Of a stretch of DNA of 64,000 nt, positions 23,223-33,335 are shown one piece after another. This DNA comes from an uncultured Solirubrobacterales bacterium (lineage in GTDB: Bacteria > Actinomycetota > Thermoleophilia > Solirubrobacterales > 70-9), in assembly GCA_963728365.1 (NCBI GenBank), contig CAVSJI010000002.1, positions 49,270 through 113,269 on the forward strand. Direction: 5' to 3'. Every line of letters starts with the position of its first letter. The stretch's first letter is position 1. The notes beneath the pieces were generated by a model. That model was not told the DNA's origin. It made no database searches and was given only the letters and a program-made list of their open reading frames with translations. The position numbers and the translations under genes were made by a program.

Positions 23223-24770
23223 TCACCCGCCGAGCTTGAAGGCGACGATCTGCGCTTCCTGGCCGGCCGCGGCGGCGAGCCCGGCCGGCGCGATCAGCAT
23301 GTCGCCCTCGGCCATCACGCCTGAGTTGGTCCCGGCTGGCAGGCTCTGACGCCAGACCACCTGGCCCGACTTCGCGTCGAAGGCGCTGACCACGCCTTCG
23401 GAGGACGTGGCGAAGACGAGGTCGTTGACCACGGTGGTCGCGCCGAACGCCGGGGTGGAGAGCTTTTCCTTCCACTTGACCTTGCCCGTGGCCAGGTCGA
23501 GTGCCGCGACTTCGCCGCTCGGAGTACCGTTTTCCACCGTTTCGCTGCCCGAGACCAGTTCGATCGCGTTGTTGACGATTGGCACGAAGACCGACTTGCC
23601 GTCGGTCGACGCCGGCGCAATCACGCCGCCCAACGAGCCGGGGTAAAGGGTCCCGGTCTTGATCTTCGACTCTTCGCCGCGCATCGCCAGCAGGCCGTCT
23701 TCATCGTGGCCGTTGTGTTCGCCGACGGCGCGCTTCCAGATTGTCTTGCCGGTCTTCGGGTCGGCGGCGAGCACGATGCCCGACTTGCCCGCGGCGACGA
23801 CGATTTCGCGACCGCCCGACTGGGTGAGAATCGGCGGGCCCTGGAAATCCCAGTCGTGGAGATCGTGCGGAGTGACCTGGTTGTACCACTCGAGCTTGCC
23901 GGTCTTGGCGTTGAGCTTGACCAGCGAGTCGGTGTAGAGGTTGGGCCCGGGACGGCTCGAGCCCCAGGGGTATTTGCCGGTTCCCGGAAAGGGCGCCGGG
24001 TTGCCGACCCCGATGTACATCGAGCCCTTGCCGTCGAAGGCCGGCGGGTACCAGACGCCGCCGCCGGCGTTGACCGTCGGCTTGCCCCAGAGGTCCTCGG
24101 GCACCGTGTCGAAATGCCACTTTTTCTTACCCGTCTTCGCGTCGAGCCCCCAGAGGATGCCGACGCCGCCGCCTTCGTAGAGCTCGTTGGCGTTGAGCGG
24201 CACGGTCGAGACGTAGACCATCCCGGCGTCGTAGCCGGGGGCCATGTCGATGCCCTCGTGTTCGTTGCGGGTGAGTTTCACCGACCAGAGCTCTTCGCCA
24301 CTTTCCTGGTCGAGGGCGAAGGCTTCGGTCGGCGTCGCGCCGAAGACCTTGCCTTCGGAGACGACGACCCCATTCGGCCCCTCGTCGGGCTGTTCGAAGC
24401 TGGCGTTCCAGAGCACCTTGCCCGATTCGAGGTCGAGCGCCTGCACGTTGGAGGCGAGATCCTGCGAGTAGATCACGCCCTTGTCGATCACAGGAGTGGA
24501 GGCGTAGCTGCCGAAGTTGCTTTCGCCGGTGATCGGCGCGCTCCAGGCTTCACTGAGGCTGGTGACGTTGGAGCTGTTGATTTCGCTCGGGGCGCTGCGG
24601 GTGTTCGCTGCGTCGACTCCGGGGAAGCCGGAGCCGGTGAAGCTGGCTTCGCCGCCCGAGGACGAGGACGAGCCGCCACAGCCGCCAATCGCCAGCGCCG
24701 CGACGAGGGCCGCCGCTACGAAAGGCCCGGCAGCGCGCATCGGCCAGTTCCCCCTGCTCAGACTGGTCAT
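23223..24770 (-). CDS. Lipoprotein with PQQ-like/BamB-like beta-propeller repeats
   Basis: Lipobox LAIGGC. Repeated G.V(Y/F)..(T/D)..G.L.A.D..TGK..W blades. 4-nt overlap with the upstream flavoprotein gene. Confidence 0.7.
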   Translation of the reverse strand: MTSLSRGNWPMRAAGPFVAAALVAALAIGGCGGSSSSSGGEASFTGSGFPGVDAANTRSAPSEINSSNVTSLSEAWSAPITGESNFGSYASTPVIDKGVIYSQDLASNVQALDLESGKVLWNASFEQPDEGPNGVVVSEGKVFGATPTEAFALDQESGEELWSVKLTRNEHEGIDMAPGYDAGMVYVSTVPLNANELYEGGGVGILWGLDAKTGKKKWHFDTVPEDLWGKPTVNAGGGVWYPPAFDGKGSMYIGVGNPAPFPGTGKYPWGSSRPGPNLYTDSLVKLNAKTGKLEWYNQVTPHDLHDWDFQGPPILTQSGGREIVVAAGKSGIVLAADPKTGKTIWKRAVGEHNGHDEDGLLAMRGEESKIKTGTLYPGSLGGVIAPASTDGKSVFVPIVNNAIELVSGSETVENGTPSGEVAALDLATGKVKWKEKLSTPAFGATTVVNDLVFATSSEGVVSAFDAKSGQVVWRQSLPAGTNSGVMAEGDMLIAPAGLAAAAGQEAQIVAFKLGG

Positions 24771-26095
24771 TGCGCGACCCTATGCGATTGTTTTGTACCT
24801 GTCAAATAATCTCGGACAATTGGCTGAAGGACCCGGTTGGAGAGCAGGCCGAGCGCCCCGAGGTTGGCGAAGCCGGGGCCCTGACTGAGCCCGGCGAGGC
24901 CCGGGATGTGCAGGCGGGGGCTCATGCCGCGCAGCTCCAGATGGCGGCCGATCGGCACCTCGGTTCCCGCCGGCCGGTCCCAAACCTGGCCCACCTGGCG
25001 CTCGATCTCCTCGCGCACGGCGGCCGGGAAGAGGGTGCGCAGCTGGGCCAGCAGGTCGAATCCGGTGCAGTTGGCGACGAAGTCGTGCTCGCTTCCGGCC
25101 GGCCCCTCCGGCGATTCGTACTCGAGCCGCACACCCGCCCCGTCGCGGGTCGCGCCGACGTCGGTGACCCGGCCGGTGAGGAAGCGACAGCGATCGTCGT
25201 AGGCGATCTTGTCGAGGCTCGGCGGGTCGAAGACGCCGCGGTCGGAATGCTTGACGAAGTCGCGGCGCGTCTGCAGGTCGAGCGACTCCCATTCGACCGT
25301 GTCGGGATTGGAGAAGACGCGGTTCTCGAGGAAGCTCTCGCCGCGGCTCATCGGCAGCATCGGCGTGTAGATCGTGAAGCGGCAGTCCGGCCGCATCTCG
25401 CGCAGGAACATCGTCGCGCTGAGGGCGCTCTCGCCGCCGCCGACGATCGCCACGTCCTGCTCACAGCCCTCGGGAATGCGGGCGAACTCCTCGCGGCGGC
25501 TGTCGCAGTGGAAGACCCGCCCCTCGACCGCCGGCTCGTGCGGAAAGGCGCGGTGGATTCCCGGCCCGGTGAGGACCAGCGCCCGCCCGCGGTGACGCGA
25601 GGCGCCCTGGGGCCGCTCGGCCTCGACCAGCCACCCCTCCGCGTCCTCCTCGAGCCGCACCTGCGTGACCCGGGCGCGCAGATGCTCGACCCCCTCGGTC
25701 GCCTTGCCGAGGACCCAGGTGAGGTACTCGCCGTAGTCGCGGTGGCGGACCTGCGGCGAGCCGGCGTCGACCCAGCGCGCGTAGCGGCGGGTGGCGATCA
25801 TGAACTGCTGCCAGGTGAACTGGCCGAGGGCCGCGTCGACCGCCTCGCCGGCCTCGCCGAACTCGATGTGGCTCTGGTAGGGGAAGCCGATGTCCTTGAT
25901 CGGGGTTACCGCCAGCGGCTCCTCGCCCGAGGTCATCCCGTTGCGCCCCTTCCAGGAAGCGGCGGCCTCGGTGCTCTCGATCACCAGCGCCGAGATCCGG
26001 GCGAGGCCGAGAGCGTTGAGGACGTGGACCTTTGTCGCGATCCCCGCCGCCTTGGCGCCGGCGCCGACGACGATCAGGTCGTGGCGCTCGCTCAT
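24767..26095 (-). CDS. FAD/NAD(P)-binding flavoprotein monooxygenase, SidA/IucD/PvdA-like N-hydroxylase (tentative)
   Basis: Two dinucleotide folds, LIVVGAGAKAAG and VAIVGGGESA, plus a WKGRNGM block. Subfamily assignment is from memory only. Confidence 0.55.
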   Translation of the reverse strand: MSERHDLIVVGAGAKAAGIATKVHVLNALGLARISALVIESTEAAASWKGRNGMTSGEEPLAVTPIKDIGFPYQSHIEFGEAGEAVDAALGQFTWQQFMIATRRYARWVDAGSPQVRHRDYGEYLTWVLGKATEGVEHLRARVTQVRLEEDAEGWLVEAERPQGASRHRGRALVLTGPGIHRAFPHEPAVEGRVFHCDSRREEFARIPEGCEQDVAIVGGGESALSATMFLREMRPDCRFTIYTPMLPMSRGESFLENRVFSNPDTVEWESLDLQTRRDFVKHSDRGVFDPPSLDKIAYDDRCRFLTGRVTDVGATRDGAGVRLEYESPEGPAGSEHDFVANCTGFDLLAQLRTLFPAAVREEIERQVGQVWDRPAGTEVPIGRHLELRGMSPRLHIPGLAGLSQGPGFANLGALGLLSNRVLQPIVRDYLTGTKQSHRVAQ

Positions 26096-33232: not shown

Positions 33233-33262
33233 AGCCGGCCTCCGTCGCTGCCAAATTGCCGA

Positions 33263-33335
33263 TGCACCAGCCGGGGCTCGAACCCGGATCTCCGGCTTTT
33301 AAGGCCGGCCCTTTCACCGATTAAGGCACTGGTGC
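33263..33335 (-). tRNA. 73-nt cloverleaf tRNA, anticodon UAA, with short (4-nt) variable loop; no encoded CCA
   Basis: Hand fold: GCACCAG-TG-CCTT-AATCGGTGA-AAGG-G-CCGGC-CTTAAAA-GCCGG-AGAT-CCGGG-TTCGAGC-CCCGG-CTGGTGC-A. All stems are Watson-Crick. U8, A14, G18G19, U33, T54T55C56 and A58 are present. Confidence 0.8.

Follow-up and report, generated by a model that had tools for sequence, protein, structure and literature searches.

An operon in an uncultured Solirubrobacterales bacterium joins a private tRNA, whose anticodon changes between lineages, to a protein derived from ArgRS that appears to have lost its arginine pocket, and to genes of small-molecule biosynthesis. The codon matching the anticodon is depleted in each lineage, a combination of lineage-variable anticodon and matching codon depletion that, by our literature search, is not described before. 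The reading we favor, held at about even confidence, is that a private synthetase/tRNA pair is encoded here alongside the enzymes for making and tailoring its substrate, and that the acyl-tRNA would serve a small-molecule pathway.

Layout of the operon

All members lie on the minus strand of the window, the whole 64,000-nucleotide stretch of DNA that was analyzed, in the order listed here from the upstream end.

33419-33424, minus: extended -10-like promoter element (TGC-TAGGAT), putative, 84-89 nt upstream of the tRNA
33263-33335, minus: private class I tRNA, 73 nt, anticodon UAA, C10-G25, A73, CCA not encoded (ARAGORN; Rfam tRNA model, 72 bits)
31544-33232, minus: ArgRS-derived synthetase-like protein, 562 aa (PF00750, 21 bits), HIGH motif retained, arginine pocket apparently lost
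29313-31479, minus: fused PabA-PabB, predicted ADC synthase (GATase, Anth_synt_I_N and Chorismate_bind domains)
28792-29316, minus: small GNAT N-acetyltransferase, 174 aa (Acetyltransf_1, Acetyltransf_7)
27702-28721, minus: HDAC-family amidohydrolase, acetylpolyamine-amidohydrolase-like (PF00850, E 5e-42)
26092-27705, minus: AroQ chorismate-mutase-fold domain (about residues 1-95) fused to a cytochrome P450 (CM_2, p450)
24767-26095, minus: NbtG-like flavin N-monooxygenase (FMO), lysine N6-hydroxylase type (PF13434, Lys_Orn_oxgnase)
24800-24805, minus: TTGACA hexamer in the AT-rich 3' tail of the FMO gene
23223-24770, minus: PQQ-type beta-propeller lipoprotein (PQQ, PQQ_2), with signal peptide and lipobox in the translation

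Every gene named in the preliminary description was confirmed, the protein-coding ones by Pfam searches. Its picture of a tightly coupled operon needs qualifying: ORF coordinates do give 4-nt stop/start overlaps at 29313-29316, 27702-27705, 26092-26095 and 24767-24770, but the aaRS/PabAB and GNAT/HDAC junctions are gapped, by 64 and 70 nt. A 30-nt spacer that contains GGAGG separates the tRNA from the aaRS start codon downstream. A strict sigma-70 scan found no full promoter; the extended -10-like element may act as one, and a TGnTAnnnT motif recurs at a similar distance in loci of every clade.

The operon contains no NRPS or PKS, as had been described, and a literature search agreed with the earlier impression that this gene combination is not a published pathway. 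Searches of the operon and its flanks found no Pfam or NCBIfam domain of an aminoacyl-tRNA-using transferase (Fem/VlmA-like, CDPS, PEARL or L/F-transferase), so the ribosome stays a candidate consumer of the acyl-tRNA.

Conservation and distant relatives

The gene set and tRNA recur in ~150 further Solirubrobacterales loci, from 78 species-level genomes and about 70 metagenome contigs, an arrangement far beyond chance. The preliminary description had proposed a check of co-conservation in other genomes; once run, it decisively removed the refuting outcome of no co-conservation, since these genes behave as one co-conserved unit. GNAT is present in all Solirubrobacterales-type loci, and the PQQ lipoprotein is co-conserved with the operon, with tandem copies in L002.

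The synthetase-like family comprises 214 clusters (50% identity) at E≤1e-30. A family covariance model showed that its distant members (25-49% identity) also adjoin tRNA-like genes, with anticodons UAG, UAC, CCU, UCU, UUG and UGG. Among these partners, some show a shortened D arm, mismatches in the acceptor stem or a pyrimidine at position 37; U34 is kept in seven of the nine anticodon types seen. The usual neighbors in distant relatives are the NbtG-like FMO, which adjoins the aaRS-like gene in L083, L088 and L171, and the HDAC-like gene. Minimal loci L088 and L171 consist of the tRNA and a conserved triad of ArgRS-like, HDAC and FMO genes, and PabAB, AroQ-P450 and GNAT are absent from them. 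The p-amino-aromatic module is therefore an add-on rather than part of the core.

The private tRNA

In 82 of 83 genome-set sequences the aaRS-like gene is accompanied by the same tRNA body, whose anticodon is UAA, UGU or AGU according to lineage, and the tRNA keeps this place even in the rearranged loci L071, L077 and L078. It is under structural selection: 99.1% of cloverleaf cells are paired, 12 of the 21 pairs show compensatory changes, and none of 500 shuffles did as well. The Solirubrobacterales tRNA also retains all features of a decoding tRNA (7-nt loop, U33, A37).

We rejected its identification as tRNA-Leu(UAA). The body is class I, 73 nt long with a variable region of only 4 nt, and so lacks the long variable arm of class II tRNA-Leu that bldA-type tRNAs share, and its orthologs carry UGU or AGU. 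Genuine leucine tRNAs do occur among the loci, an 84-nt tRNA-Leu(CAG) in L048 and an 85-nt tRNA-Leu(UAG) in L150. Nor is this an ordinary tRNA recruited for condensation, as had been suggested; it is instead private and co-inherited, and its anticodon varies by lineage and tracks codon usage.

It might still be an ordinary rare-codon tRNA charged by ThrRS or LeuRS, whether as a bldA-like regulator or as sole reader of ACA/UUA, that is merely co-transcribed with an ArgRS-like enzyme acting elsewhere. The combination of G1-C72, C2-G71 and A73 with a UGU anticodon resembles threonine identity elements as known for E. coli ThrRS, own codons are found at invariant Thr and Leu positions (below), and low use is expected of any codon read by a scarce tRNA. 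We nonetheless consider this account improbable. It would need one tRNA body to bear Leu, Thr and, in relatives, Val, Arg, Gln and Pro anticodons, and a UAA form that does without the leucine arm. The linkage of tRNA and aaRS-like gene has moreover survived both locus rearrangement and divergence of the family to 25-49% identity, and ArgRS-type enzymes need tRNA to activate their amino acid.

An ArgRS fold with an altered pocket

The AlphaFold2 model of the synthetase-like protein (pLDDT 90.5) predicts that the full three-domain ArgRS fold is retained; the top 20 Foldseek matches are all ArgRS, with a TM-score of 0.73 to 1f7u. The class I HIGH motif is present, in ALHIGHLRN. Scores are well below the ArgRS equivalog thresholds, however, at 82 bits against a cut-off of 262 for TIGR00456 and 83 against 399 for NF002446. 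In a profile alignment to 1bs2, yeast Y347 corresponds to Q325, D351 to A329 and E148 to N; judged from this alignment, the arginine-binding residues, including the guanidinium binders Y347 and D351, are lost. The partner anticodon also lacks the C35 of arginine tRNAs, being UAA here and UGU or AGU in orthologs, with CCU and UCU in only two distant relatives. Despite its fold and HIGH motif, we therefore rejected the protein as a canonical ArgRS on the basis of pocket, score and anticodon.

These features bear on two other roles. One is self-resistance: a cluster that makes an ArgRS inhibitor might carry a resistant ArgRS, as clusters of this kind often include resistant aaRS copies and ArgRS inhibitors occur in nature (bioRxiv 10.64898/2025.12.02.691738). 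Loss of the arginine-binding residues, equivalog scores so far under the cut-offs, non-arginine partner anticodons and conservation of the locus across a whole order make this role highly implausible. The protein could instead modify its tRNA by the logic of GluQRS/YadB, attaching the pathway product to a nucleoside rather than to the 3' end; an aaRS paralog that glutamylates queuosine in tRNA-Asp is the precedent (PMC9437257), and the frequency of U34 noted above would suit such an enzyme. GluQRS lacks an anticodon-binding domain, though, whereas the three-domain architecture is complete here, and modification of a single tRNA gives no reason for its codon family to change between lineages. 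We regard this as very unlikely.

Anticodon switching and codon depletion

Parsimony on a five-gene tree required three anticodon changes in 54 of 60 bootstraps and four in the other six; three changes imply at least two independent switches by double substitution. Codon usage flips along with the anticodon. Lineages with a UGU anticodon show ~3-fold depletion of ACA, and those with UAA show depletion of UUA. Measured against other NNA codons, ACA stood at 0.040–0.045 in the three UGU groups vs 0.10–0.17 in UAA and AGU groups, a correlation that is backed by only two independent UAA/UGU switches and to which phylogenetic inertia may contribute. In the operon genes alone, the ACA ratio was 0.044 (UGU) vs 0.124 and TTA/CTA was 0.015 vs 0.141. 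Metagenome loci replicated the ACA depletion, at 0.042 vs 0.126. As these data come from loci, depletion could also stem from genomes that have no canonical tRNA for the codon in question.

Such a pattern raises the prospect of genetic-code expansion at a sense codon, by the logic of the pyrrolysine cassette: the product amino acid would go to the ribosome at UUA, ACA or ACU, at few sites or at a low level proteome-wide. Several observations are as this account would have them. The tRNA, its dedicated synthetase and amino-acid tailoring genes share one operon in which no other acyl-tRNA consumer is visible, the decoding-competent cloverleaf is conserved, and in L171 the tRNA directly follows an rrn operon. 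The anticodons fall only on rare codons, the own codon is reciprocally depleted, and ACA is displaced from conserved Thr columns: UAA-type operons have ACA in 116 alignment columns but UGU-type operons in 11, of which a single one has a Thr majority.

Own codons nevertheless keep their canonical meaning at invariant positions. TTA in this very genome encodes a Leu conserved in 120 of 120 orthologs, and an own-codon ACA encodes a Thr that is ACC in most other loci; the codons are therefore not fully reassigned. Conserved in-frame target codons with a non-standard meaning were absent from about 2.5 Mb of loci, and the only conserved own-codon site in the operon or flanks was in the 3' tail of the FMO gene, where the TTGACA hexamer lies. 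That tail is AT-rich and rich in rare codons in most loci, and TTA and ACA recur there whatever the anticodon type of the locus, which accounts for the seeming conservation. An anticodon switch would also need all targets to be recoded simultaneously, and the tRNA-like partners of distant relatives are degenerate and poor decoders. On balance we think code expansion unlikely. Its most specific form seems equally doubtful to us, namely that Solirubrobacterales encode a 23rd-type amino acid made by the operon, lysine- or aryl-amine-derived and possibly a metal-binding hydroxamate, which the ArgRS-derived synthetase would charge onto the private tRNA for insertion at near-vacant UUA/ACA, with the captured codon being lineage-specific.

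Biosynthetic enzymes

The FMO is closest in the PDB to 4d7e, the L-Lys monooxygenase NbtG (E 4e-62, residues 6-426, full length). Its FAD/NADPH motifs (GAGAKAAG and GGGESA) are present, and by similarity it is a probable lysine N6-monooxygenase of NbtG/MbtG type. The earlier call of an N-hydroxylase-like flavoprotein thus stands, but the accompanying idea that it could oxidize an arylamine does not, as it has no resemblance to arylamine oxygenases. The HDAC-like protein finds its best PDB matches among acetylpolyamine amidohydrolases, and its translation contains the motifs PGHHA, DLDLH, GDPHG and EGGY. The GNAT protein comprises one 174-aa domain bearing a CoA-type motif. The PQQ propeller matches TIGR04528, 'acido-empty-quinoprotein', at 161 bits, below the cut-off.

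PabAB, previously presented as a single gene, is not one open frame in this window. Comparison with L023, L006, L016 and L002 located a 1-nt insertion, an extra T near 30102 (ATCTTCG vs ATCTCG in relatives), that splits it. Since the orthologous PabAB is intact, at 719 aa, the extra T is probably an assembly error. The translations have the Cys-His-Glu triad of GATase (GICLGHQ, FHPES) and the PabB-specific lysine of the PIKGT motif (RPIKGT), consistent with the ADC-synthase type already assigned to it, and the best NCBIfam match of the C-terminal fragment is pabB (TIGR00553), at 317 bits against a cut-off of 328.

The mutase-domain assignment likewise appears sound, from its fold (CM_2, E 8e-21) and from the catalytic Arg/Arg/Lys/Glu set, which by eye retains equivalents of EcCM Arg11, Arg28, Lys39 and Glu52. 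Its best NCBIfam match is TIGR01803, 'CM-like', below the cut-off of that model, and, at 33 bits to true mutases and 26 bits to the PchB lyase, it is about equally distant from both. The mutase and P450 are separate genes in L002, and a search for a close characterized relative of the P450 domain returned none. PapB-like action of the mutase on ADC, and transient N-acetyl protection by the acetyltransferase/deacetylase pair, both put forward in the preliminary description, are conjecture.

Proposed function

In the private-pair reading, the ArgRS-derived enzyme, with its class I core and tRNA-binding domains kept, would load a non-arginine amino acid on the private tRNA. From the neighborhood and one structural homolog, that amino acid is most likely a lysine derivative that the NbtG-like flavoenzyme hydroxylates at N6 and the HDAC-like amidohydrolase processes. 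The acyl-tRNA would be an activated intermediate of the small-molecule pathway; alternatively, by analogy with true ArgRS, the tRNA may be an obligatory cofactor for amino-acid activation. The Solirubrobacterales add-on of PabAB, AroQ-P450 and GNAT may supply and modify an aromatic unit derived from 4-amino-4-deoxychorismate. We further propose that the synthetase is blind to the anticodon and that the tRNA, a perfect cloverleaf, is able to reach the ribosome, such that selection would hold its anticodon on rare A/U-ending codons and purge the matching codon from genes.

To our knowledge, synthetase paralogs with co-evolved tRNAs are very rare (Pyl, ProRSx, CysRS*), and none is ArgRS-derived. 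The present pair lies within a biosynthetic operon and has been maintained throughout an entire, abundant order of soil bacteria, and the codon-usage footprint that flips with its anticodon is measurable genome-wide. A non-ribosomal carrier role would make this the first dedicated tRNA we know of in a small-molecule pathway, and a natural example of how cells stop an orthogonal tRNA from corrupting translation. If the ribosome uses it, this would be capture of a sense codon by a new amino acid. Either case would provide a testable example for codon-capture theory and a ready-made orthogonal pair, anticodon-blind if our proposal is right, for synthetic biology.

Comparison with known systems

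The PapA/PapB/PapC route to p-aminophenylalanine resembles the add-on module in that a fused PabAB ADC synthase adjoins an AroQ-fold enzyme. By contrast, there is no PapC-type dehydrogenase or aminotransferase here, AroQ is fused to a P450, and the module is missing from core-only loci. The bldA tRNA of Streptomyces is likewise a UAA tRNA that reads the rarest codon of a high-GC actinobacterium, but as a leucine tRNA it belongs to class II and has the long variable arm, whereas the tRNA here has a 73-nt class I body and UGU or AGU orthologs.

Natural-product pathways that depend on tRNA, of the VlmA/Fem, CDPS or PEARL type, have an acyl-tRNA consumer in the cluster, and none was found here. 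In valanimycin biosynthesis (VlmL/VlmA/VlmH), an aaRS paralog and a flavin N-hydroxylase share the cluster, and aminoacyl-tRNA donates its acyl group to a hydroxylamine. That paralog is a class II SerRS working on housekeeping tRNA-Ser with a dedicated transferase, VlmA, whereas our operon has a private tRNA and no transferase was seen. Bacterial hydrazine synthetases (cupin plus MetRS-like, e.g. PyrN/Spb40) act with lysine N6-hydroxylases to couple an amino acid to a hydroxylamine (bioRxiv 10.1101/2025.08.22.671884). They share with this operon the pairing of a class I aaRS-like catalytic domain with a PF13434-type N-hydroxylase. They are, however, MetRS-like and cupin-fused with no private tRNA described, while the protein here is ArgRS-like over its full length, has no cupin and is co-inherited with a tRNA.

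Allo-tRNAs also combine one body with highly variable anticodons (PMC7609411), but in an 8/4 or 9/3 acceptor-T architecture, with Ser/Ala identity and no dedicated synthetase; ours is a 7/5 cloverleaf with a linked synthetase. ProRSx-tRNAProA and CysRS*-SelC* each pair an aaRS paralog co-evolved with a linked anomalous tRNA whose anticodon mismatches the amino acid, and no ArgRS paralog is among those given in the 2022 review of aaRS paralogs that covers them (PMC9437257). In those pairs the amino-acid specificity of the parent enzyme is unchanged and no biosynthetic genes accompany them, unlike the changed pocket and biosynthetic operon seen here.

The pyrrolysine cassette (pylT-pylS-pylBCD) matches in gene content, gathering a tRNA gene, a dedicated synthetase and enzymes for a lysine-derived amino acid in one locus, and PylRS ignores the anticodon (PMC7609411). 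PylRS is a class II enzyme, though, its tRNA always has the amber anticodon CUA, and its in-frame targets are known. In this operon a class I ArgRS derivative is paired with lineage-variable sense anticodons, no deviant in-frame target codons appeared in the loci searched, and own codons are found encoding invariant Leu and Thr.

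Organization of the operon

The operon lies on the minus strand of the window (G+C content 69–77%), whose nearest relatives are MAGs of Solirubrobacterales. It is headed by a class I tRNA gene, here termed the private tRNA.

Features of the operon, from 33335 to 23223
Operon head at 33335, minus strand, private tRNA, 73 nt, anticodon UAA (ARAGORN; Rfam tRNA model, 72 bits)
Minus strand, ArgRS-like ORF, 562 aa
Minus strand, fused PabA-PabB (PabAB), frame split near 30102
Minus strand, GNAT, 174 aa
Minus strand, HDAC-family gene
Minus strand, CM_2::P450 fusion (AroQ-P450)
Minus strand, Lys_Orn_oxgnase-type flavoprotein (FMO)
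Operon end at 23223, minus strand, PQQ beta-propeller with lipobox

The tight coupling proposed in the preliminary description holds in part: all four of its 4-nt overlaps are right, but the ArgRS-like gene and PabAB are separated by a 64-nt gap, and GNAT and HDAC by one of 70 nt. PabAB is interrupted by one surplus T (30095–30110, minus strand), where the window reads ATCTTCG and four relatives read ATCTCG. Because the orthologs are unbroken, at 719 aa, the split is probably an indel error of the long-read MAG assembly. The related locus L001 has similar splits in PabAB and HDAC.

Flanking genes are unrelated (Fic, MarR, carbonic anhydrase; farther out a PKS and a DUF6603 giant). An alpha/beta hydrolase gene (33462–34280) was rejected as an operon member, its linkage being confined to the window's own clade. 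Also rejected, for lack of co-conservation, was the pair at 418–8272, a second chorismate-consuming system of the window in which an Rv2949c-like chorismate pyruvate-lyase gene adjoins, on the opposite strand, a FAAL-ACP-KS-AT-DH-KR-ACP type I PKS; we take this pair to recall the mycobacterial p-hydroxybenzoate-primed phenolic-lipid pathway. A block of large genes at 41205–59095 codes for proteins of 1001 aa (AAA_22+TPR), 2787 aa (DUF6603) and 1234 aa (no Pfam match). ARAGORN also called a 94-nt tRNA-Gly(GCC) at 18923–19016, within an ApbE-family gene (18498–19475), where Rfam had no match. This call is almost certainly spurious, arising from GC-rich coding sequence; similar over-long GCC calls occur in two related loci, L022 and L036.

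Conservation across Solirubrobacterales

More than 2,000 database relatives of the ArgRS-like protein were found; the best 120 are 79–100% identical, and among these all taxon-named ones belong to Solirubrobacterales. A look-up of the window's own protein returned no record. A scan of species-representative genomes gave at least 578 relatives, the best 80 loci being at 58–84% identity. Wherever the contig was long enough, tblastn mapping recovered the order ArgRS-like, PabAB, GNAT, HDAC, CM/P450, FMO, PQQ, with the CM/P450–FMO block relocated upstream in a few lineages. The same pattern appeared in 70-odd metagenome contigs; that scan was queried with distant family members but returned mostly Solirubrobacterales-type loci, and hence served as a replication set only. 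Since the order recurs in genomes and metagenomes, the gene set is a co-conserved unit; the preliminary description had named a lack of co-conservation as grounds for its refutation, and the result is the opposite. Judged by its distribution, the operon seems to be inherited vertically throughout the order rather than to be a sporadic gene cluster. In locus L002 the PQQ-propeller lipoprotein gene is present three times in tandem (18441–21671), downstream of the operon.

An ArgRS-like enzyme without the arginine site

The AF2 model of the ArgRS-like protein (pLDDT 90.5, pTM 0.92) can be superposed on ArgRS along the whole chain. All top 20 Foldseek matches were ArgRS (TM 0.73 to the yeast ArgRS–tRNA-Arg complex), followed by CysRS and MshC at ∼0.45, and the alignment of the family profile to the yeast enzyme extends from one end to the other (E 3e-31). 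The HIGH motif is unbroken. The guanidinium binders Tyr347 and Asp351 of the yeast enzyme correspond to Gln325 and Ala329, inside a family-wide PTQH.R motif, and its Glu148 to Asn or Asp. That the gene encodes a self-resistance ArgRS was rejected on the loss of these arginine-binding residues and on scores far under the ArgRS equivalog cut-offs; we give this idea almost no credence. The family comprises 214 clusters (50% identity, E<=1e-30), and no ArgRS-derived paralog appears in a 2022 review of aaRS paralogs (PMC9437257).

The private tRNA

The same tRNA body (GCACCAGUGCCUUAAUCGGUNAAAGG...CCGGGUUCGAGCCCCGGCUGGUGCA; C10–G25, A73, CCA not encoded) was found beside the ArgRS-like gene in 82 of 83 sequences of the genome set, the one exception being a contig that starts at the gene. 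Over 31 distinct tRNA sequences, 99.1% of cells fit the cloverleaf, and 12 of the 21 pairs show compensatory changes, a result equalled in none of 500 shuffles. Because cloverleaf fit and compensatory pairing beat all shuffles, we take the private tRNA to be functional. It has no long variable arm and is therefore not a leucine tRNA; a bldA-type tRNA was rejected for the same reason. A TGnTAnnnT element is found 80–90 nt upstream, conserved in position in all clades, and the stretch that separates the tRNA from the ArgRS-like start codon contains a GGAGG; a strict promoter and terminator scan gave nothing informative. The operon transcript thus seems to begin with the tRNA.

The anticodon varies by lineage (UAA in 39 loci, UGU in 41, AGU in 2), with U33 and A37 constant. 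Parsimony on a five-gene tree required 3 changes in 54 of 60 bootstraps and 4 in the other 6, while shuffled labels required 19–32. These changes comprise a single step to AGU and no fewer than two independent double substitutions between UGU and UAA; a two-gene tree had given at least three independent anticodon switches, a count that is thereby reduced.

Depletion of the matching codon

Lineages were compared for use of their own codon, that matching the private-tRNA anticodon. With ORFs called by GC3, the ratio of ACA to other four-fold NNA codons was 0.040, 0.041 and 0.045 in three UGU groups and 0.10–0.17 in five UAA and AGU groups of similar GC3. Independent metagenome loci gave 0.042 (UGU) versus 0.126.

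Codon ratios in alignment-defined operon genes only, by anticodon type
ACA / other NNA: UGU 0.044; UAA 0.124; AGU 0.097
TTA / CTA: UGU 0.141 (11/78); UAA 0.015 (2/132); AGU 0.5 (4/8)

ACA was held by 11 alignment columns in UGU-type operons versus 116 in UAA-type operons, and threonine was the majority residue in 1/11 and 41/116 of these, respectively. The contrast between UGU and UAA types was absent from the ACT control. Depletion is reciprocal by anticodon type, and therefore every lineage is short of the codon its private tRNA would read; as just two independent switches stand behind the comparison, phylogenetic inertia may explain it in part.

Own codons do occur. In the window, the TTA at 9803–9801 (minus strand) encodes Leu131 of a DUF1016 (DUF1016_N) protein. 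In this column 120 of 120 orthologs have Leu, which speaks for UUA still being read as Leu in this genome. CTA and GTT codons are found near this TTA. One UGU-type clade has ACA at Thr357 of the ArgRS-like gene, where most other loci have ACC. Judged from such positions, the own codons are not fully reassigned, and no conserved "target" own codon was found in ∼2.5 Mb of loci. Insertion of a new amino acid by the ribosome through the private tRNA is attractive because no other acyl-tRNA consumer is visible, an aminoacyl-tRNA-consuming transferase not having been found in the operon, but the presence of own codons where Leu or Thr is invariant makes it unlikely.

A TTA codon conserved close to the 3' end of FMO was rejected as a recoding site, since the AT-rich element there bears TTA or ACA irrespective of anticodon type. 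In the window (24785–24811), as in most loci, the last 10–15 FMO codons are AT-rich and filled with rare codons, often with TTGACA, directly preceding the translationally coupled PQQ-propeller gene. This tail may be an internal promoter or other regulatory element; the strict promoter scan made no call in it.

Distant relatives and their tRNA partners

Family members at 25–49% identity also adjoin tRNA or tRNA-like genes, detected with Rfam and with a covariance model derived from the tRNAs of Solirubrobacterales.

Distant loci: anticodon, tRNA features and neighbors
L088: UAG; same body, C37; ArgRS-like, HDAC, FMO
L171: UAG; same body, C37, directly 3' of an rrn operon; ArgRS-like, HDAC, FMO
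L087: UAC; U37; upstream of a LeuRS-like gene, then the ArgRS-like gene
L089: CCU; short D arm; PPTase, A-PCP, guanidinoacetate-methyltransferase-like, GNAT
L173: UCU; acceptor stem mismatched; PRMT-like methyltransferase
L172: UUG
L084: UGG; CCA encoded; host 50% GC

By these associations, a tRNA partner is a trait of the ArgRS-like family, the enzyme is evidently independent of a fixed anticodon, and some distant partners look unfit for decoding. The C35 (Arg-type) anticodons in guanidino-methyltransferase lineages suggest descent from an ArgRS/tRNA-Arg pair. Alternatively, the private tRNA could be a normal decoder of rare codons that simply shares the operon's transcript; a single body bearing many anticodons and a family-wide linkage to the ArgRS-like gene speak against this, and we find it quite unlikely.

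Two enzymes recur as partners, namely the flavin N-hydroxylase and the amidohydrolase of HDAC type; the Solirubrobacterales-specific members are PabAB, AroQ-P450 and GNAT. In L088, a ZMP/ZTP riboswitch (13924–14006, 59 bits), a sensor of folate/purine stress, directly follows the ArgRS-like/HDAC/FMO triad and is itself followed by aminotransferase and serA-like genes; it adjoins a variant of the system without PabAB. In L171 there is a complete rrn operon (2587–9978), whose 23S gene contains a group I intron and whose two rRNA genes both carry LAGLIDADG endonuclease ORFs; ∼240 nt past 5S comes the private tRNA and then the ArgRS-like gene, so that in this lineage the tRNA may be transcribed together with rRNA. 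In L087 (3173–7071) and L173 (10001–15052) the ArgRS-like gene is joined, next to the tRNA-like RNA, by another synthetase-like gene, which is truncated and of class Ia (LeuRS-like / Anticodon_1); this suggests clusters with two synthetase-like enzymes.

Proposed function

The FMO resembles the lysine N6-monooxygenase NbtG over its full length (4d7e, E 4e-62). In the HDAC-like protein, whose nearest matches are acetylpolyamine amidohydrolases, every catalytic motif is retained. PabB bears the PIKGT lysine typical of ADC synthase, which bears out the assignment of PabAB in the preliminary description. The AroQ domain keeps its catalytic residues and is about as distant from mutases as from the pyruvate lyase PchB; it could catalyze either ADC rearrangement (PapB logic) or pyruvate elimination giving PABA. 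The P450 has no close characterized relative.

As the best-supported model we propose, with about even confidence, a private, anticodon-blind synthetase/tRNA pair that would make a non-arginine acyl-tRNA, probably of N6-modified-lysine type, for a small-molecule pathway. The private tRNA would act as carrier, as obligatory activation cofactor, or both; true ArgRS requires tRNA for adenylate formation. Having retained a perfect cloverleaf, the Solirubrobacterales tRNA could leak into translation, and selection would then park its anticodon on rare A/U-ending codons and purge the matching codon. A GluQRS-like modification of a tRNA nucleoside by the ArgRS-like enzyme seems to us highly improbable.

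Comparison with known systems

Literature searches gave no description of the ArgRS-like family or the operon, in agreement with the initial impression that this gene combination is not a described pathway. To our knowledge, there is no precedent for an aaRS paralog/tRNA pair descended from ArgRS, for such a pair embedded in a biosynthetic operon, for its lineage-variable anticodon, or for its reciprocal codon-usage footprint. The operon's general kind, an aaRS paralog with a co-evolved tRNA, is already known. Although it fails the defining tests of each, the operon has logic in common with the pyrrolysine cassette, the ProRSx–tRNAProA pair, the CysRS*–SelC* pair, the SerRS paralog and N-hydroxylase of valanimycin, and the MetRS-like hydrazine synthetases with their lysine N-hydroxylases.
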